35,951 bases of DNA, taken from the IMG/VR virus record IMGVR_UViG_2711768050_000003. The stretch is one strand, 5' to 3'. Below, one piece after another: positions 2,850-18,175 of the stretch (within the stretch, counting starts at the first letter, position 1; every line of letters starts with the position of its first letter). This DNA comes from a virus. Lineage: Duplodnaviria; Heunggongvirae; Uroviricota; Caudoviricetes. Below the pieces are notes generated by a model that did not search any database, had not been told where the DNA came from, and saw only the letters and a program-made list of their open reading frames with translations. Made by a program: the position numbers and the translations under genes.

Positions 2850-3193
2850 TATTTCACCTCTTGCTGTGACATTGTTGAAAAACGGATACCAGCTCGTTGC
2901 TGCCAGACGATCCAACTGAGAGTCATATCCCATGCCATGTATTCGTTATCGCCGTTTTTTGCTCTCCGACGATCGACTGTTTTACCGAAACGCTTTTCCA
3001 TAAATAATTCATAGGCTGCGCGTTCATCTGGCTCAACTTCCAGAGATGCCAGTGCAATCCGTGCCAGTTCTAAATCATTTTCAAGCTCAGCGCGAATCTC
3101 AGCGAATGCACTCTGTGTTAAGGCGAACTCAATGCTCTGCACTTTATTCCGTGCGCGCTCAAGCAGTGCATGGTAGTTAATTTCGGTTGTCAT
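2849..3193 (-). CDS. hypothetical early protein
   Basis: 114-aa ORF with GAGGTAGGGG RBS; ATGA-type overlaps with both neighbouring genes suggest translational coupling. Confidence 0.5.
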   Translation of the reverse strand: MTTEINYHALLERARNKVQSIEFALTQSAFAEIRAELENDLELARIALASLEVEPDERAAYELFMEKRFGKTVDRRRAKNGDNEYMAWDMTLSWIVWQQRAGIRFSTMSQQEVK

Positions 3194-4062
3194 ACCCCTA
3201 CCTCTTCGAATTCCAATTGATCACCCCAGATTTCACATGACTCTGAACACGAACCGGTATCGAATCGCCTGGCCTGTACCATCGCCTGATACAAATTTCT
3301 GTAGTCGCTGTTGGCAGACATTCTGGCAATTCCGTCAAGCGTCAGGTGACCACGGTACATAATGTCTTTACCTGTTCTGCGATGACCATCCCTGACGTGT
3401 TTGCCTGTAACCAGCTCATTAAAAACTCGCATCAGACCTGGTTCGTCTTTACATGCAAGCCCCAGCTTTTGCGTTGACTTTTTGATGCAGAAAACACAGT
3501 TCCCGAGATGCTCCGGGATTTGCAAATCAAAAGGTTGTTTTCGCCACCACCGGATAACATCCGACTTATCAAAATCTGATAGCTCGGCAAGATACCGGAC
3601 GCCCGATTTCGGTTTCAGCCTACGGGGTTCGTCTGCACGAATACCCAGCCATGTGATGTAATTACCTCGCCCGAAATGGTTATCGCAGTATTTCGTGAAA
3701 GGGATGAGTTTTAGCCTGTCAGTACAGAACGCGCCGCCGATGTATGGCGTGCCGTACTTTTTAACCATGTCCATAAACGGTTTAAGCACCGGCATTCGTG
3801 TCTGAATATCCTTTGGCTCCCATTCTGTATAACCATTTGGCTGCCCAAGCTCAGGATTTATATCGACCTGTAACAAAGTTAGTGGTATGTCCCAGAACTT
3901 TACAACCTCCCGGATAAAGCGGTATGTCAGCGGATGTTCGCAACCGGTATCCATAAAGATGTAGCAGACGTTATTGCCAGCCTTTCTTTGTTCTTCCATC
4001 AGGTGAACAAGATATGCGGATGTTCTCCCGCCAGAAAAACTAACTACATGAGTTATGCACAT
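3190..4062 (-). CDS. phosphoadenosine phosphosulfate (PAPS) reductase-family protein, phage type
   Basis: N-terminal VVSFSGGRTSAY PP-loop-like motif typical of the PAPS-reductase/ATP-PPase fold; start chosen at the ATG just before the motif (4062), alternative start at 4179. Confidence 0.55.
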   Translation of the reverse strand: MCITHVVSFSGGRTSAYLVHLMEEQRKAGNNVCYIFMDTGCEHPLTYRFIREVVKFWDIPLTLLQVDINPELGQPNGYTEWEPKDIQTRMPVLKPFMDMVKKYGTPYIGGAFCTDRLKLIPFTKYCDNHFGRGNYITWLGIRADEPRRLKPKSGVRYLAELSDFDKSDVIRWWRKQPFDLQIPEHLGNCVFCIKKSTQKLGLACKDEPGLMRVFNELVTGKHVRDGHRRTGKDIMYRGHLTLDGIARMSANSDYRNLYQAMVQARRFDTGSCSESCEIWGDQLEFEEVGV

Positions 4063-4589
4063 TTGCGTAATTCCGATAACTCGTTGAAGCGTTCCATAAA
4101 CATCCCGTAGGCATGGCCCGGTGCCAGTGGAATAACTTTGAACATCTCTGTTGCCGGGATACCTTCCAGTACAGGCCATAAAGAGCCATCATCAAGCCCG
4201 AGATCACGGCGTTCGGTTGCCAGCATAATGAGATCGGCATATTTCACTGGCGTGCTCATAACAGGAGGTAACCCGTATTTCTCACGGATTACTGCATCTA
4301 TTTTTTCTTCCATCCGTTTATAGTCAGGAAGAAGGCGTTTCAGTGGTGCGGGGATGTCCTGGCAATACGCTTCTGTTGCATCATGCATTAACGCTTCAAA
4401 AGCAAATTCCTGCGGCACCAGCTGGCTGCAAAGCACCGCATGTTGGGCGACACTGTAGAAGTGAGAAAGATGACCGGCAAAGCGACAGATATTTGAAAGA
4501 GAAACCGCGATATCGTTAATCACGATGTCGTCTTTATTTATCTTGTCATAATAAAAATGCTTCCCGGAAAAAGTTTTAATAAATGACAT
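4053..4589 (-). CDS. HD-domain phosphohydrolase (YfdR-like 5'-deoxynucleotidase family)
   Basis: 178 aa from the ATG at 4589, preceded by a GGAG RBS; HD-superfamily residues (ICRFAGH, MHDATEAY); length matches remembered E. coli prophage protein YfdR. Confidence 0.65.
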   Translation of the reverse strand: MSFIKTFSGKHFYYDKINKDDIVINDIAVSLSNICRFAGHLSHFYSVAQHAVLCSQLVPQEFAFEALMHDATEAYCQDIPAPLKRLLPDYKRMEEKIDAVIREKYGLPPVMSTPVKYADLIMLATERRDLGLDDGSLWPVLEGIPATEMFKVIPLAPGHAYGMFMERFNELSELRKCA

Positions 4590-4716
4590 TTTGTTCTCCA
4601 CGTATATGCGCTGCACCGCGCTGAGTTTGGGTAAAAGGAAGCCCTCACCATCCGGTGATTATTGAGTTAATTACGTTTCCATAAATGCCCCCGCAGGGGC
4701 ATTTGCAGTAATGAAA

Positions 4717-5541
4717 TCAGGCGGTGAAAGTGCCAATAAAGGTTTCTACTTTGCTGTCTTTGAATTTCTCAACAAGCAGATCACGAAATTCGTTAGCCAT
4801 ATCTTCCTGCACTGCTTCCAGCTGAATAATGCGCAGAACCAGTACAGGACGATCGCCAGTGATAATGCTGAGGCGTAATTTAAACGGACGTTCTTTCAGA
4901 CCTTCAAACGGAACGCATTTAAATTCAAATGCCACTGGCATAATGTCTTTGGTCTTCGCTTCGACAGATTCCATCAGGGAGCGTTTGCCGCTGAAGTCAT
5001 TATCTTCAAAATCAGCGGTCTGGTTTGCTTCAATCGTGATTTTACGGATTGCCGCAGCCGCTTTTGTTGCCTGAATGGCGTCACCATTAGCATCAAAGCC
5101 CACAAGGTAGTCGGCCCAGTCTTCAATCCATTCTGCCAGTGATTTCTGGGAGTTACGCTCGCCGTTAACAGACAACAGGGCAGAGAACGGTGCTGTCTTT
5201 TTCAGTTTGAGAGTGGCGGTGTTATCTGCGTGACCTGGTTCATCAATAGTACCTAGGTTAAGCACACTGACGGCACGCATATTATCAGCATCGATAAAGC
5301 AGCGGGTGCCTTCATCTGCAAGATCTTTAGAATAACGGGTAAAGTCATCGATGCTGGCAGTGGAAAGCGCACCACGGAAACGGAAGCGATTTAAATTAAA
5401 TTTTTCCAGATCATGAATGCGGAAATTCTCAGGCAATGCCACAGCATCGGCACCAATCTTACTGATAATTTCATTAACACCCTGAGCAGAAATAAGGGCA
5501 TGGATTTGATTAATTGCGGTTGCGTCTAAGTTCTGAGACAT
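4717..5541 (-). CDS. YfdQ-like prophage protein (DUF2303-type), function unknown
   Basis: 274 aa, GAGGAC RBS; sits next to the YfdR-like and YfdP-like genes as in the remembered CPS-53 yfdP-yfdQ-yfdR module. Confidence 0.55.
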
Positions 5542-5606
5542 AATAAGTCCTCACTATATAAAGATATTCAGTGATGAGATAAATAATCAGTTAATTAAAA
5601 ACGATA

Positions 5607-5969
5607 TTAACGACCTGCTGCGCGGAGTTTTCCGTCAGGTTCACCGGCAAGAGTCAGCAACTGTCCCTGGTCTTCCTGCAGAATAGTCAGGCGACCACCG
5701 CGATTGACATACATCGGCGTTTCGGTGGTGTCTTCTTCGGAAATTTTCCCGCGGTTAGTCGGGCGAACATATGAGAGTTTGTGTTTGATTTTCACTCGGT
5801 TCTCATCAAACGGTTCGATTTCTAGGTTGAGCGAGACCTTACCTTTGGTTTTCGTGTTCATCACACCGGAAGCGACTTCACTGAGTACTGCGCCGATTTT
5901 GGTTTCAAATACGCCGCCGTCCAGCTCCCTGATAAATGCCTGCACATCAGTACTGCGTTCGCTAGCCAT
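5607..5969 (-). CDS. YfdP-like prophage protein, function unknown
   Basis: Start at the internal ATG (MASERSTDVQ...) with GAGGAG RBS; the longer 226-aa six-frame ORF would run through GC-rich structured DNA with junk-like translation. Confidence 0.5.
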   Translation of the reverse strand: MASERSTDVQAFIRELDGGVFETKIGAVLSEVASGVMNTKTKGKVSLNLEIEPFDENRVKIKHKLSYVRPTNRGKISEEDTTETPMYVNRGGRLTILQEDQGQLLTLAGEPDGKLRAAGR

Positions 5970-6017
5970 TTTGCTGCTCCTCATCATATCGACCCTGCAA
6001 GGCCGGTTAGTTTCTCC

Positions 6018-6106
6018 ACAAAACAGAGAAGAACACCTGCGGTGACTGCCGCCCGGATGGATTGGGTTATGAGCCCGTCGTCCGGTGATGCTCTTCTCTG
6101 TTTTGT
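6018..6106. repeat. Long inverted repeat: 14-15-bp perfect stem (ACAAAACAGAGAAG / CTTCTCTGTTTTGT) closing a ~60-nt GC-rich loop
   Basis: Direct reading of both arms; located 48 nt upstream of the YfdP-like start in the leftward transcript. Confidence 0.6.
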
Positions 6107-6115
6107 AAAAAGGAC

Positions 6116-6150
6116 GGTACCAGCCGGAAGCAAGGGTACAAGCTGGTACC
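6116..6150. repeat. Perfect 9-bp hairpin GGTACCAGC-N17-GCTGGTACC containing GGTACAAG
   Basis: Direct reading; three GGTAC(A/C) motifs, and GGTACAAG is identical to one arm of the cI/cro operator palindrome at 7975..7995. Confidence 0.55.
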
Positions 6151-6375
6151 GCCAAGACTACACACAGCATAAAGTTGTGGTGCCGGGTGCCTCCCGGTGC
6201 CTGGCGAAGGTTGCACACCAGGCGGGTGGGTATCCACAGAAGGTCGACTGTCAGCCTCAACCTTAACCCGCGTGCGCTGAGCCGCATTCACCACAACGCT
6301 AAGGATTCTCTCTGGTTGAAAATACTTAGCTGTTATGTGCCTGCTTTTAGCCACATCAGGCGAGGTGGACCTAGT

Positions 6376-13167: not shown

Positions 13168-13920
13168 ATGAACCTTGAAGCCTTACCAAAATATTACTCC
13201 CCAAAATCTCCAAAATTGAGCGATGACGCACCGGCGACAGGCTCAGGTGGTTTAACGATTACGGATGTGATGGCTGCGCAGGGGATGGTGCAGTCGAAAG
13301 CACCGCTTGGGTTTGCCTTATTCCTGGCAAAAGTTGGTGTTCAGGATCCTCAGTTTGCGATTGAAGGTCTGTTCAATTACGCGATGGCACTGGATAACCC
13401 GACATTGAACAAATTGAGTGAAGAAACCCGGTTACAGATCATCCCTTACCTTGTGAATTTTGCCTTTGCTGATTATTCCAGGTCTGCGGCAAGTAAGGCT
13501 CGCTGTGAGCATTGTGCTGGTACTGGATTTCATAATGTATTGCGCGAAGTGGTGAAACACTCCAGAAGCGGGGAATCTGTTATCAAGGAAGAGTGGGTGA
13601 AGGAACTATGTCAGCATTGCCATGGTAAGGGAGAAGTCAGCACCGCGTGCAGAGGGTGTAAGGGTAAAGGTATTGTCCTGGATGAAAAAAGGACCCGGCT
13701 TCATGGCACGCCTGTTTATAAGATTTGTGGGCGTTGCAATGGAAACCGGTTTAGCCGTTTACCAACCACACTGGCGCGGCTTCATGTCCAGAAGCTGGTA
13801 CCAGACCTGACGGATTATCAGTGGTACAAAGGATATGCAGATGTCATTGATAAACTGGTTACAAAGTGCTGGCAGGAGGAAGCTTACGCTGAAGCACAAT
13901 TGAGAAGGGTGACGAGATAA
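13168..13920 (+). CDS. late-gene antiterminator Q-like protein with DnaJ-type zinc-finger repeats
   Basis: Four CxxCxGxG repeats; GGAGA RBS before the ATG at 13168; positioned immediately upstream of the lysis region as Q is in lambdoid phages. Confidence 0.5.
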   Translation: MNLEALPKYYSPKSPKLSDDAPATGSGGLTITDVMAAQGMVQSKAPLGFALFLAKVGVQDPQFAIEGLFNYAMALDNPTLNKLSEETRLQIIPYLVNFAFADYSRSAASKARCEHCAGTGFHNVLREVVKHSRSGESVIKEEWVKELCQHCHGKGEVSTACRGCKGKGIVLDEKRTRLHGTPVYKICGRCNGNRFSRLPTTLARLHVQKLVPDLTDYQWYKGYADVIDKLVTKCWQEEAYAEAQLRRVTR

Positions 13921-14027
13921 GCGATTTTCGCCGAAGATAACGACATAATACTTGTGTTTCTCAAAAAATATGGATAAGATTTTCTCAACGATGGGGCTTG
14001 TGTATCTATCGTTGAACAATTTTTACG

Positions 14028-14052
14028 ACCTCGCTATTGCGAGGTTTTTTTA
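14028..14052 (+). terminator. rho-independent terminator downstream of the Q-like gene
   Basis: ACCTCGC-TATT-GCGAGGT followed by TTTTTTT. Confidence 0.6.
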
Positions 14053-14065
14053 TGGTTTTTTTCTA

Positions 14066-14097
14066 TTCAATCTACATCAAAATCAATGTGTTATAAT
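14066..14097 (+). promoter_or_regulatory. Extended -10 promoter (TGTTATAAT) driving the AT-rich cassette
   Basis: TGnTATAAT at 14089..14097, about 38 nt upstream of the 14135 ATG; no good -35. Confidence 0.45.
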
Positions 14098-14134
14098 GTT
14101 TTCTGTAAAACAACATTAAAGACAGGAGAACATT

Positions 14135-14404
14135 ATGAAACTGACCTCTATCCATCTTGAAATACTACGTCGAGTGAATGAATTGCAGCCAAAGGATTCT
14201 AGAATTCAGGCTACATCATTACCTCATCTCTCAGCAAAAGAGGTTAATTTTGCTATTTCAGATCTTGCTGATATAGGTTTTATCGATGTTATACGAAGCA
14301 AATCTGCCGAAGGTGGATTGATTGCTAATGAGATAACGTCAAAAGGTTTTGCTTTTTTGAGTGAGATTGGCGCTGAAAAAAATTCATCGATGAGCACTCA
14401 TTGA
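14135..14404 (+). CDS. small hypothetical protein, cassette gene 1
   Basis: 89 aa, strong RBS GACAGGAGAACATT-ATG; AT-rich; any winged-helix assignment is speculative. Confidence 0.65.
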   Translation: MKLTSIHLEILRRVNELQPKDSRIQATSLPHLSAKEVNFAISDLADIGFIDVIRSKSAEGGLIANEITSKGFAFLSEIGAEKNSSMSTH

Positions 14405-14418
14405 TTTCTGCTTCAATC

Positions 14419-14436
14419 GGCTGCCAATTGGCAGCC
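14419..14436 (+). repeat. Hairpin GGCTGCC-AATT-GGCAGCC, left copy of a repeated hairpin flanking cassette gene 2
   Basis: Perfect 7-bp stem, no U-tract; near-identical to the terminator hairpin at 15442..15459. Confidence 0.55.
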
Positions 14437-14601
14437 TAAACTGTAAAGTGAATTTAAAATCGCCTACAATTGATGCTTAAATTTTGTTCTGTATCATCTG
14501 CAGGTTTAGGGATATCACAGTAGCTTTCTGACAAGAAGAGTTCTTTTCTTCTACCAATGAAGTGGTTATGTTAACCTGCGCCAAATCGAGACTGGTGCGG
14601 A

Positions 14602-15408
14602 GTGGAATCGAAAGTGTCATATTTTTACAGAAGCAAGAATATTTCAGGTGTTTCTATAAATGAAGATAGCTTGATTAGCTTAAGCACGGCAATTGTCGAA
14701 CGCTGCGTTAAAATGAATGAGCAAGCTCAAAAGGAAAGTAGGGAAGTTTGTGCTCAATGTGTTTTTTTTATTTTGTTCGATGGTAAGGGGTATAAAGTTG
14801 ATTCTATCGGTGAGCTTGTGAAATACTTTAGACAGGCCACTAGGATTGATCAAATAATTTTTACTATTGAAACTTATCAAAGTCGACAGTCTAACAGGAT
14901 GAATGGATCTTGGATGGAGCTACGAATTGATGAGAGGAATTCAAATAGCAGCACAATGATTGTAGCATCGGAAGATAATGAGTGGGTTGACTCGTTATGG
15001 ATTACGATTCAGGATTTACTTAACAAGTGCAAAAATAAATTTAGATTTTTTAGAACAGCTTGGACTATGTTAAGTATCCAGATTTCAGGTGTGACAGTTG
15101 GCTTTTTGCTTAGCTTATGGACAGCCTCAAAACTGGCGCCAAAACTATCAATCGATGGTGCATTTGCTTTATCATTTATTTGTATCTTTATTTTGTTTTC
15201 GAACTTATGGAGCTTTGCTATTCCATTAATAATTAAGCTTATCGACTTTTTGTTTCCTAGTGTTAAGTTTGTTATTAATGGTAAAAATTACTTTCACTGG
15301 AGTGTTCAGGCTATAATTGGAGCGATTGCCAGTGCGGTTATATTGTATTTTATTAGCTCCATGTTGCTTTTTGCATTAGAAATGTTAAATAGCATCATTA
15401 AGAAATAG
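14602..15408 (+). CDS. hypothetical membrane protein (soluble N-terminal domain, 3-4 C-terminal TM helices), cassette gene 2
   Basis: 268-aa ORF, AT-rich; hydrophobic segments in the C-terminal 120 aa. Start uncertain: GTG 14602, GTG 14614 or ATG 14713. Confidence 0.55.
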   Translation: MESKVSYFYRSKNISGVSINEDSLISLSTAIVERCVKMNEQAQKESREVCAQCVFFILFDGKGYKVDSIGELVKYFRQATRIDQIIFTIETYQSRQSNRMNGSWMELRIDERNSNSSTMIVASEDNEWVDSLWITIQDLLNKCKNKFRFFRTAWTMLSIQISGVTVGFLLSLWTASKLAPKLSIDGAFALSFICIFILFSNLWSFAIPLIIKLIDFLFPSVKFVINGKNYFHWSVQAIIGAIASAVILYFISSMLLFALEMLNSIIKK

Positions 15409-15441
15409 TTAATGAATTAGTTATAATTACATCAATTCTAT

Positions 15442-15466
15442 GGCTGCCAAATGGTGGCCTTTTTTA
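15442..15466 (+). terminator. rho-independent terminator after cassette gene 2
   Basis: GGCTGCC-AAAT-GGTGGCC stem (two G-U pairs) followed by TTTTTT. Confidence 0.55.
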
Positions 15467-15516
15467 TTCCTCTCATTTCTATTTCTGAGAGGACTCACTG
15501 CAATAAGAGGTGGCTA

Positions 15517-15903
15517 ATGTCCGATCCGATTTCCGGCACAGGGTTAGCTGGTGGAGCCCTAACGGGCGCTAGTATTTATGGACTGCTGACCGGAACTGAT
15601 TACGGCGTTGTTTTTGGCGCATTTGCAGGGGCTGTATTCTATATAGCAACAGCAGCAGATCTGAGTGCATCGCGCCGACTGGCATATTTTATCGTGTCAT
15701 ATATTGCTGGGATCCTTTGCTCTGGATTGGTTGGCTCCAAGCTGGCAAACTTGACCGGATACAGTGATAAACCTCTGGATGCTATTGGTGCCGTAATCGT
15801 CTCTGCTTTAGCCGTTAAAATCCTGACGTTCCTGAATAATCAGGATATCGGCTCGCTGGTGGCGCTCATAACGCGCCGGGGAGGTTCAGGTGGAGCTAAA
15901 TGA
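15517..15903 (+). CDS. putative holin
   Basis: 128 aa from the ATG at 15517 with AGAGGTGG RBS; Gly/Ala-rich TM segments; first gene of the lysis cassette. Confidence 0.55.
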   Translation: MSDPISGTGLAGGALTGASIYGLLTGTDYGVVFGAFAGAVFYIATAADLSASRRLAYFIVSYIAGILCSGLVGSKLANLTGYSDKPLDAIGAVIVSALAVKILTFLNNQDIGSLVALITRRGGSGGAK

Positions 15904-16171
15904 CCCGACAGCAACTATTAATGCGCTGTTATGTGCTTGTGTTGTTATTACTCTGATGTTTTATCGTCGTGGTGATTCGCGGCATCGTCCGTGGGTTTCA
16001 CGTTTAGCCTGGCTGATTACTGTTACATACAGTGCTGTTCCGTTGGCCTATCTCTGTGGGATTTATCCCCATTCCTCATGGCCCATTATCGTGGCGAACA
16101 CTATTTTTCTTTCCGTGCTGGTGGCTGTCAGAGGCAACGTTGCACGTCTGGTTGATCATCTGAGGCACTAA
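15890..16171 (+). CDS. small lysis-cassette membrane protein (second holin or antiholin-like)
   Basis: 93 aa, two hydrophobic helices; GTG start overlapping the holin stop, ends at the endolysin start. Confidence 0.4.
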   Translation: MELNDPTATINALLCACVVITLMFYRRGDSRHRPWVSRLAWLITVTYSAVPLAYLCGIYPHSSWPIIVANTIFLSVLVAVRGNVARLVDHLRH

Positions 16172-17364: not shown

Positions 17365-17634
17365 TGACGCTGCCCCGAATACTCAAAGTTGCTGGTAGCC
17401 AGTTTCAGGTAAAAAGCTGAGAGCGCACTGGTGAGGGTTAACGGGAAGAAGCGCACCGGTGCTCTAGGCTGATAGCCAGTCAGCTTCCGGTTAGTTATGA
17501 GGGATTCACGAGATACCCCTGACACATGGTCTCAAGGGCATGATCGCGGCCATTGCGAAAGTGTGGATGCAGAAAATAATGAAAAGCAGCTCAATATGAG
17601 CCGCTTTGATTTTCCGCTCTTGTTGAAATGAAAG

Positions 17635-17916
17635 TTAGCTACCTGACCCCATTCTGTAAGTCATAGTCACAAAACCAGGCTTTTCAGGGTCAGCGCTTAT
17701 TGTTGTCTGGATATTATGAGATGAAATCTCAGAGGATCCGTTTTTTTGGGTAATAGTGATATGGCTACCATTTTCATACTCAAAGTACTTAACGGTATTT
17801 CCATTAACTACAGACTCTTCAGCTTTAACTAAGCCTTTATCATCAATGGTGATCTTGGAAATTTCTTCCTCAACCTTCATTTCACCACTTTTTGCATCAA
17901 ATTGAATTTTTGGCAT
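17635..17916 (-). CDS. hypothetical protein, AT-rich moron between lysis and packaging genes
   Basis: 93 aa from the ATG at 17916 with GGGAGA RBS; extended -10-like TGGTATAAG about 30 nt upstream on the minus strand; opposite orientation to the flanking late genes. Confidence 0.5.
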   Translation of the reverse strand: MPKIQFDAKSGEMKVEEEISKITIDDKGLVKAEESVVNGNTVKYFEYENGSHITITQKNGSSEISSHNIQTTISADPEKPGFVTMTYRMGSGS

Positions 17917-18175
17917 GTTTTCTTCTCCCAAGAATTGAGTATTTTCTTATACCACAAAATACTCATGCTAAACACAGTAACCTACTGGAAGCCGTAGTTT
18001 GGTGATGGGTATATATATAATGATGGGTTAAAAACCTGGTCTGATGAGGGAAAACAAATTGTGCGTAATCGCCTAAAACCAAGCTGACACCGAATCGGAT
18101 TCAAGTTCAGTACTGGCCATCACACTCAATTCAAGCTACTAGAATTCGCTAGCGTTTATTTATTTTGGAACACCC

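Follow-up and report, generated by a model that had tools for sequence, protein, structure and literature searches.

In lambdoid phages, the interval between the late antiterminator gene Q and the holin gene S holds genes that change the lysogen, including Shiga toxin genes, and is a classic place for lysogenic-conversion genes such as stx. The closest described systems use this slot in a recognizable manner. In phage SfV, the order is Q, a terminator, orf47, a methyltransferase gene, a second terminator, and S, and in Stx2c phages a Q module with the same late promoter (PR′) and leader terminator (tR′) precedes stx2c. Comparable extra genes are the lambda-type morons (bor, lom), as reportedly defined by Hendrix and colleagues. 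The locus described here occupies the same slot in an Escherichia coli prophage contained in the 35,951 nucleotides (nt) of IMG/VR virus record IMGVR_UViG_2711768050_000003 (Caudoviricetes), a stretch referred to below as the window. An insert of ~1.4 kb (14052-15465) lies there between Q and the holin genes and contains two intact open reading frames (ORFs), ORF1 and ORF2. The region is foreign, AT-rich cargo, i.e., a moron, which an SfV/e14-like prophage at thrW carries in its Q-to-holin slot. The feature itself is of a known type, a moron in the Q-S hotspot; what is new is the conserved, widespread, and uncharacterized family to which ORF2 belongs.

The Q/PR′/tR′ leaders of SfV and the Stx2c phages are ~80% identical to that of the window, and the cargo is bracketed by two terminators in SfV as in the window. 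This layout, which would insulate the lysis genes from cargo transcription, recurs in SfV-like phages. By analogy with stx-type cargo, expression is expected to proceed by Q read-through and possibly from the cargo's own promoters. The cargo itself is unrelated to stx, to the SfV methyltransferase, and to orf47, and the slot of the window has no tRNA genes. It resembles a moron in being extra relative to close relatives, in its deviating composition, in having its own terminator (15442-15465) and a candidate promoter, and in lying inside the late operon. It differs from a lambda-type moron in comprising two stacked units, not one, and in that its own promoter is statistically unsupported. The structural and expression-context statements made on the cargo (a PR′/tR′ leader, two modules, and a distal terminator) are very probably correct.

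A foreign insert in a variable slot

The insert and its closing terminator comprise the following main features:

14052-14565, + strand: ORF1 unit, an AT-rich, lineage-only module (candidate promoter, ORF1, hairpin, and spacer) that has no homology to relatives past 14051
14135-14404, + strand: ORF1, 89 aa, with a ribosome binding site AGGAGA (14124-14129) 5 nt before the ATG; matches phrog_32916 (E=1e-60), a PHROG with no assigned function
14566-14613, + strand: conserved 5′ region of the ORF2 unit (5′ untranslated region or promoter), which includes GGAG at 14599-14602; DNA homology with loci L009, L017, and L023, each of which has a methyltransferase gene upstream, starts here
14614-15408, + strand: ORF2, 264 aa, with a predicted alpha+beta domain (~1-145) and predicted transmembrane (TM) helices (~150-174, 182-213, and 223-263); matches phrog_30208 (E=8e-162), which has no assigned function
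15442-15465, + strand: intrinsic terminator closing the ORF2 unit (hairpin 15442-15459 plus T6)

Base composition sets the insert apart, as had been proposed in a first-pass annotation of this DNA that worked from the letters alone. The guanine-plus-cytosine (GC) content of 14053-15470 is 0.351 versus 0.525 ± 0.044 (z = -3.96) in a set of 634 non-overlapping segments of equal size, all of which lie above it (minimum 0.416). At third codon positions, GC is 0.26 in ORF1 and 0.34 in ORF2 versus 0.43-0.50 in Q, the holins, and the endolysin. The cassette is likewise absent from close relatives at the same position: it occurs in 41 of 5426 complete E. coli genomes, versus ~248 that have the leader and ~229 that have the holins, and ~190 genomes carry the same holins without ORF2. 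Prophages that share Q and the leader have in this place a 111-aa ORF, an orf47-like gene with a DNA methyltransferase gene, or a 141-aa ORF with four tRNAs, and those that share the holins have ORFs of 85, 198, or 261 aa. The description of the cargo as lying in a variable hotspot was apt, since the same Q, leader, or holin modules elsewhere flank unrelated genes; the comparison of related prophages that had been proposed as a check shows a variable slot, a cassette missing from some relatives, and a shift in composition. The 261-, 198-, and 85-aa ORFs and the orf47-like proteins were also considered as homologs of ORF1 or ORF2, and on comparison they are unrelated.

The left edge of the insert follows directly on the late leader of the phage, which consists of two backbone elements:

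13952-13995, + strand: lambda-type late promoter PR′ (-35 TTGTGT at 13952-13957, 17-nt spacer, -10 TAAGAT at 13975-13980, and initially transcribed block CTCAACGATGGG at 13984-13995)
14027-14051, + strand: tR′-like intrinsic terminator ending the short late leader (hairpin 14027-14046 and a T-run to 14051)

PR′ aligns column for column with the post-Q region of lambda, TTGACT...TAAATT-TGA-CTCAACGATGGG, with TTGTGT corresponding to TTGACT and TAAGAT to TAAATT. The 12-mer CTCAACGATGGG is identical in the window and lambda, is found in all cassette carriers as well as in the cassette-free relatives L002-L004, and is invariant in the alignment of relatives; we take this block to contain, as in lambda, the sigma70-dependent pause element for Q loading. 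The hairpin at 14027-14046 has a folding free energy (dG) of -13.7 kcal/mol (z -4.8), and none of 200 shuffled sequences folds as well. In the same alignment, its stem shows compensatory changes in cassette-free prophages, and homology is lost right after the T-run. The ~130 nt that lie 3′ of the Q stop codon are 80-89% conserved in ~248 cassette-free E. coli prophages, SfV, Ayreon, mEp460, and 15 Stx2c-converting phages, and in SfV and Ayreon the hairpin carries the annotation "terminator". Hexamers, pause block, and a terminator just 3′ of Q, as expected of a lambda-type PR′/tR′, are thus all found within 13952-14051.

Because the leader is shared, aligns with lambda PR′, and ends its homology after the T-run, the terminator at 14027-14051 most likely represents the tR′ of a short late leader. 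The same sequence comparisons assign 13921-14051 to the conserved backbone of the phage and place the start of the insert at ~14052. The first-pass annotation had let the cassette start at 13921 and had counted a terminator at 14028-14052 among the insert's own signals; the hairpin terminator exists (at 14027-14051), and as backbone shared with cassette-free prophages it does not belong to the insert. Since the insert lies 3′ of tR′, it would be part of the Q-dependent late transcript, as is stx.

At the right edge, the terminator proposed to close the cassette was found in place. Its hairpin (15442-15459) has a dG of -11.4, and 3 of 200 shuffles fold as well. A similar hairpin follows the ORF2 homolog of locus L013, unrelated cargo in AH02 and TUM18780, and the methyltransferase gene of SfV. 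Among carriers, identity falls 3′ of 15442-15465, which suggests that the terminator marks a mosaic junction.

Two modules and their carriers

The sequence evidence identifies the cassette as two independent modules (14052-14565 and 14566-15465) and not as a conserved two-gene system. Six diverged loci with ORF2 homologs (34-79% identity) have an N6_N4 methyltransferase gene, an orf47-like gene, or another gene as upstream neighbor, and ORF1 occurs in none of the six. At the DNA level, the ORF2 unit is homologous to those loci only from ~45 nt 5′ of the start codon (~14566) onward. The pairing of ORF1 with ORF2 is accordingly not conserved across diverged homologs, and the earlier view of a two-gene system does not hold. 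In E. coli, Shigella, and Salmonella, ORF1 and ORF2 always occur together, as one block that is at least 99.3% identical and is accompanied by one Q allele; this high identity and the single Q allele indicate one recent block rather than a conserved pairing. The ORF1 unit is at least 99.4% identical across all 24 carriers examined, and both ORFs are intact in 22 of them.

Among carriers, the block of Q, leader, and cargo is 98-99% conserved, while the lysis side is mosaic, with holins at 92-99.8% and endolysin at 66-99.8% identity. Because most carriers have holins of only 93% identity, hopping of the cassette between backbones was considered; it was rejected, since the cargo moves as one with Q and the leader and mosaicism is confined to the lysis side.

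Many carriers are decayed prophage remnants (L008, L027, L032, L033, L046, and L047; E. coli GZM7, E3, NC19, and similar strains, mostly from poultry). These have lost the early and structural genes and all but the final 43% of Q, and they keep the cassette, both holins, and the endolysin, with ORF1 and ORF2 intact. In locus L013, a 3′-end remnant of an N6_N4 methyltransferase gene (2297-2400) separates the orf47-like gene from the ORF2 homolog, which would mean that the methyltransferase was lost there from an ancestral order of orf47, methyltransferase, ORF2 homolog, terminator, and holin.

ORF2: protein and family

A longer, 268-aa ORF (14602-15408) is present, and translation most likely starts at the GTG at 14614, because RefSeq calls this start, GGAG lies 11 nt upstream, and the N-terminal M-x-x-Y/F-x-R is kept in distant homologs. 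Three TM segments are conserved family-wide by hydropathy, and a fourth hydrophobic stretch (205-221) is restricted to the E. coli clade. Of the 268-aa protein with a soluble N-terminal domain and three to four TM helices that had first been described, the domain and three helices stand, the length is probably 264 aa, and the fourth helix is a feature of one clade. ORF2 has no signal peptide and has a positively charged stretch (KCKNKFRFFR) before the first helix (TM1), on which grounds the N-domain is probably cytoplasmic; the predicted helices indicate an integral protein of the inner membrane. In the AlphaFold2 (AF2) model, the N-domain has a predicted local distance difference test (pLDDT) score of ~85, and the TM part is modeled as three long helices with a pLDDT of ~55. 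Near-invariant residues across the family include D56 and G59 (motif RFDxKGY), W124, Q156 (TM1), S196, N197, and W199 (FSNxW, TM2), P215, and F219; the conserved polar residues within the helices are Q156, S196/N197, and Q232.

Compared with a 77%-identical homolog, ORF2 has a ratio of nonsynonymous to synonymous substitution rates (dN/dS) of 0.17, with similar values for its two halves, which indicates purifying selection. The PHROG form of the protein has 231 aa and begins at an internal Met. In a Citrobacter/Hafnia homolog (P0003, L017 at ~6001), an in-frame stop cuts off 33 conserved N-terminal residues and yields a 231-aa call from the internal Met; this stop and the annotators' choice of ATG may explain the length of phrog_30208.

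The proteins are as unfamiliar as they first appeared, since no curated late, lysis, or other family is matched in the Pfam, PADLOC, and PHROG scans. ORF2 and 46 diverse relatives have no match in the Pfam, NCBIfam, PADLOC, and PDB sequence libraries, and the ORF2 model has no significant fold match. Neither ORF1 nor ORF2 matches PADLOC-DB v2.0 at E<=1, and the 46 relatives gave three single-member matches only (E ~0.006-0.008), which are treated as noise. By the criteria applied, the cassette belongs to no known defense, lysis, or TA (toxin-antitoxin) family. In the literature search, the ORF accessions and PHROG ids were mentioned in no paper, the sole mention of DUF2513 (the best Pfam match of ORF1, see below) was uninformative, and the papers of Tai and of Vassallo do not describe the ORF2 protein.

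ORF2 is nevertheless no orphan. A profile search of 1.84 billion representatives (50%-identity library) returned 230 at E<=1e-3 and 126 at E<=1e-30, so that ~230 clusters at 50% identity belong with it. Nearly all members have 255-270 aa and match end to end, and the longer members contain no fused domains, only low-complexity linkers. In enterobacterial prophages, the homolog is the last gene before the holin and co-oriented with it in every case with enough flank, and this position holds over three Q families (PF03589, PF06323, and PF06530) and two holin/endolysin types. Distant members, whose loci were retrieved with sub-alignments of a 46-sequence alignment, are mostly non-viral, with 33 metagenome loci versus a single viral contig among 2.9 million searched; tblastn found no ORF2 homolog in 50,697 phage records or in 72,556 plasmids.

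Several distant members have defense-type neighbors. Among those on long contigs, one is the next gene after AbiEi/AbiEii, has YafQ/RelB in its vicinity, and immediately precedes a RhuM gene; a second is near DUF6088/AbiEii and a GNAT; a third follows a Gp49/HTH_37 (HigBA-like) toxin-antitoxin (TA) pair; and a fourth belongs to a Bacteroidota conjugative element, where a TIR protein is encoded close by. Twenty further distant loci have heterogeneous immediate neighbors (PurL, DnaE, TctC, ABC transporters, DUF4062, DUF3800, DUF6602, and an integrase fragment) with no recurring partner. ORF2 is a self-contained, horizontally scattered accessory gene, and the association of its family with defense and TA neighborhoods is suggestive and unquantified.

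ORF1 and its surroundings

The 89-aa protein and its strong ribosome binding site had been described correctly: AGGAGA at 14124-14129 and the ATG at 14135 were both verified. All weak, sub-threshold matches of ORF1 are to winged-helix families, i.e., DUF2513 (E=2e-4), HTH_45 (E=0.04), wHTH-PRTase_assc, and Lrs14 (E=0.11). The best Pfam match, DUF2513 (PF10711), a family that is itself without known function, spans residues 9-78 of the 89, and its 22.1 bits fall short of the gathering threshold of 29.6, so that ORF1 does not count as a member. Its relatives form four clusters only (among 5.8 billion), all at least 96% identical, and a PDB sequence search found a best E of only 0.77. The AF2 single-sequence model (pLDDT 55) is too poor for structure searching. 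ORF1 is probably, on weak sequence grounds, a small winged-helix protein.

The first gene 3′ of tR′ in many relatives encodes an orf47-like protein of 64-67 aa (SfV orf47 in L090, 3751-3954 in L003, and 2096-2296 in L013). The SfV copy shares 53% identity with that of L013. Proteins of this type have sub-threshold winged-helix matches (DprA_WH, TrmB, and MarR_2), and no sequence similarity between orf47-like proteins and ORF1 was detectable. A small protein with a winged helix-turn-helix (HTH)-like character directly after tR′ may be a recurring theme that includes ORF1.

Expression of the cargo

Three sites within the ORF1 unit are relevant to transcription of the cargo:

14089-14097, + strand: extended -10-like TGTTATAAT, an exact match 38 nt 5′ of the ORF1 ATG; candidate lysogen promoter for ORF1 and, by read-through, for ORF2
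14419-14436, + strand: perfect hairpin GGCTGCC-AATT-GGCAGCC 3′ of ORF1, with no T-run (dG -14.9, z -3.9)
14470-14497, + strand: promoter-like TTGATG-N16-TATCAT, which agrees with the consensus at 9 of 12 positions and falls in sequence that other ORF2 loci do not share

Both promoters had been called in the first-pass annotation, and both motifs exist, the second at 14470-14497 rather than at ~14462-14489. Their numbers do not exceed chance: TGNTATAAT occurs twice in the 36-kb window versus 0.76 expected, with at least two occurrences in 19 of 100 shuffles, a count that is not significant alone, and the region has 6 sigma70-like sites versus 6.4 ± 2.5 in shuffles. The T-less hairpin could be an RNA 3′-end stabilizer or a weak terminator. 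An Rfam scan of 13800-15600 returned nothing above gathering scores.

In a lysogen, transcription would start at the cargo promoter, for which TGTTATAAT at 14089 is the candidate, proceed through ORF1 and then through the T-less hairpin into ORF2, possibly at a low level, and halt at 15442-15465, leaving the holins silent. Upon induction, as with stx, Q-modified RNA polymerase would run past tR′, transcribe the two cargo genes strongly, and continue beyond the distal terminator to the lysis genes. The inferred role of the distal terminator is therefore to keep cargo transcripts out of the holin genes in the lysogen, with Q-modified polymerase ignoring it in the lytic cycle.

The T-less hairpin is 84% identical to the hairpin of the distal terminator at 15442-15459 (GGCTGCCAATTGGCAGCC versus GGCTGCCAAATGGTGGCC), and a 17-mer ending in GTTATAAT is present twice, 5′ of ORF1 (14081-14097) and just past the ORF2 stop codon (15411-15427). 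These repeats may be traces of an insertion of the ORF1 unit or of recombination junctions, or may be due to chance.

Possible functions of ORF2 and ORF1

ORF2 would act as a self-contained inner-membrane effector in which the cytoplasmic domain senses a cue and the TM helices then perturb the membrane. Its likeliest benefit would be the exclusion of competing phages via abortive infection or superinfection exclusion, and ORF1 would most likely be a DNA-binding regulator or an unrelated neighboring moron and not an obligate partner. Counted in favor of such a defense role are the AbiE, HigBA-like, and TIR neighbors of distant relatives and the intact cassette in remnants with a truncated Q. 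In its architecture, ORF2, as a prophage-borne and predicted multi-TM inner-membrane protein, resembles the membrane-acting phage exclusion proteins lambda RexB, P22 SieA/SieB, T4 Imm, and lactococcal AbiZ. It likewise recalls the TM effectors of CBASS, Pycsar, and retrons in having a cytoplasmic domain followed by C-terminal TM helices, but it differs from them in showing no PADLOC profile similarity, TM effectors included, and in having no partner sensor or cyclase gene. The whole explanation, with phage exclusion by ORF2 as a part of it, is a best guess that is unproven and somewhat more apt to be wrong than right. The broader proposal that ORF2 founds a previously undescribed, widespread single-gene anti-phage family, in which a novel cytoplasmic alpha+beta sensor gates a three-helix membrane module and which spreads both as a Q-S moron and as a singleton of defense islets beside AbiE and TA genes, is bolder and on balance unlikely.

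A number of observations weigh against phage exclusion. The constant position of ORF2 just before the holin in enterobacterial prophages is what a lysis-related role would predict. On other long contigs, distant members sit amid housekeeping genes in a chromosomal setting with no phage genes nearby, and the defense-type neighbors (AbiE twice, HigBA-like, and TIR, besides DUF4062 and DUF3800) amount to 4-6 of ~26 loci, a count that has no background control. The TM part is modeled with low pLDDT (~55). ORF2 is broken by an indel in two of the 24 carriers (L026 and L029), where a 164-aa C-terminal ORF is called and ORF1 is intact. The cargo promoters are plausible but statistically unsupported, with counts at chance level, and at 35% GC the island may be silenced in E. 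coli.

The pre-holin position leads directly to the principal alternative, in which ORF2 serves the phage's own lytic cycle and is expressed late, just before the holins, with the Q-antiterminated PR′ transcript as its main source. It might, e.g., modulate lysis timing, assist the holin or behave like an antiholin, or late in the cycle block superinfection or progeny re-adsorption at the membrane. Co-orientation immediately 5′ of the holin within the late operon in every enterobacterial homolog with enough flank, the predicted multi-TM inner-membrane topology, and the lack of a statistically supported own promoter all agree with it, and AbiZ, as cited in a passage of PMC11364771, provides a precedent for a membrane protein that acts through the holin clock. 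This alternative is nonetheless fairly improbable. Q and cargo stay constant while holins and endolysin are swapped, ORF2 precedes two unrelated holin families, and the ~190 genomes noted above have the same holins without it; distant relatives of the same architecture occupy non-phage chromosomal settings and are all but missing from the viral contigs and phage records searched. ORF2 has no lysis annotation in PHROG or Pfam, and neither a profile match to a lysis protein nor co-inheritance with the lysis module was found. Retention of the intact cassette in decayed remnants would also suit a benefit to the host, and ORF2, ORF1, or both could be lysogenic-conversion factors for host physiology unrelated to phages (envelope stress, transport, or colonization of the poultry or human gut). 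The Q-S slot is the classic home of conversion genes such as stx, carriers in the match list are enriched among avian and host-associated isolates (an enrichment seen without a statistical test), and genes with membrane or lipid functions (PLD, patatin, lipid A acyltransferase, and TonB) adjoin several of the distant homologs. Against this, there is no similarity to a transporter, enzyme, or virulence family, the cassette is rare among complete E. coli genomes (41 of 5426), and the neighbors of distant homologs have no consistent physiological theme, which makes this role distinctly unlikely.

Two further explanations concern the cassette as a whole. ORF1 and ORF2 could form a dedicated two-component system in which ORF1 is the DNA-binding repressor or antitoxin of a toxic membrane effector, ORF2; the two invariably lie side by side in one orientation in E. 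coli, Shigella, and Salmonella, ORF1 is winged-helix-like, the T-less hairpin would permit co-transcription, and small HTH or TA genes (HTH_37 and AbiEi) likewise precede ORF2 relatives at distant loci. However, a 209-nt spacer and a strong hairpin part the genes, the homology boundary of ORF2 excludes ORF1, ORF1 is missing from all six diverged contexts and has no homologs below 96% identity, and the carrier L029, with its intact ORF1 and broken ORF2, suggests that the co-occurrence in E. coli may reflect one recent block, so that such a system is very doubtful. The cassette could also be a passenger, neutral or selfish, that at present serves no function in E. coli and may be silenced through its AT-richness, as the two disrupted copies of ORF2 and the unproven promoters might suggest; the identity of at least 99.3% among carriers leaves little room to see selection within E. 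coli. A passenger would hardly be expected to show the low dN/dS of ORF2 against its 77%-identical homolog, an architecture conserved across ~230 clusters, or two ORFs left intact in remnants stripped of most phage genes, and this explanation too is very improbable.

ORF2 as an effector of phage exclusion thus stays the preferred, tentative reading, and the gene is a reasonable candidate for experimental testing, though many such candidates exist. If it is a true phage excluder, it represents a defense family invisible to PADLOC; if it instead tunes lysis or host physiology, a gene that recurs in prophages would gain a function. Either way, the family merits a profile model. Two unrecognized ORFs have in this way become a concrete and inexpensive target, namely a single 264-aa gene with a fixed architecture of putative sensor plus TM helices and with Abi and TA neighbors in distant bacteria.

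Prophage setting and further observations

The window is an E. coli prophage at thrW, as had been recognized at the outset, with the order proA, tRNA-Thr(CGU) (1369-1444), and integrase. Its early genes are lambdoid, and its late region is SfV/e14-like. The slot is anchored by two backbone features:

13168-13920, + strand: Q antiterminator gene, the left anchor (PF03589 Antiterm, E=6e-53; phrog_127, E=9e-108; RefSeq "antitermination protein")
15517-16171, + strand: two holin genes, the right anchor (PF16931 Phage_holin_8, E=9e-35; PF05449 Phage_holin_3_7, E=7e-20; phrog_198 and phrog_217, "holin")

The matches to PF03589 and phrog_127 agree with the Q-like antiterminator that had been placed 5′ of the cassette. 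In strain 300033 (L001), the late region and cassette are 99.9% identical to those of the window, but the integration site is next to ybhC and the integrase is different; integration modules are evidently exchanged among such phages.

Outside the late region, an early-left operon on the minus strand (3190-6287) encodes a PAPS-reductase-domain protein, the 5′-deoxynucleotidase YfdR, YfdQ, and YfdP (CPS-53-like genes), and the early-right region contains a Dam-type methyltransferase gene and two LexA-family genes. A second AT-rich island (17600-18100, GC 0.37-0.39) holds a 98-aa ORF on the minus strand (17635-17931), for which Pfam, PADLOC, and PHROG searches gave no significant match. This ORF is flanked by the Rz/Rz1 spanin genes on one side and the HNH/terminase genes on the other, and relatives have unrelated genes at its position (DUF6173, GrlR-like, KilA-N, and other hypotheticals), so that 17600-18100 looks like a second variable moron slot.

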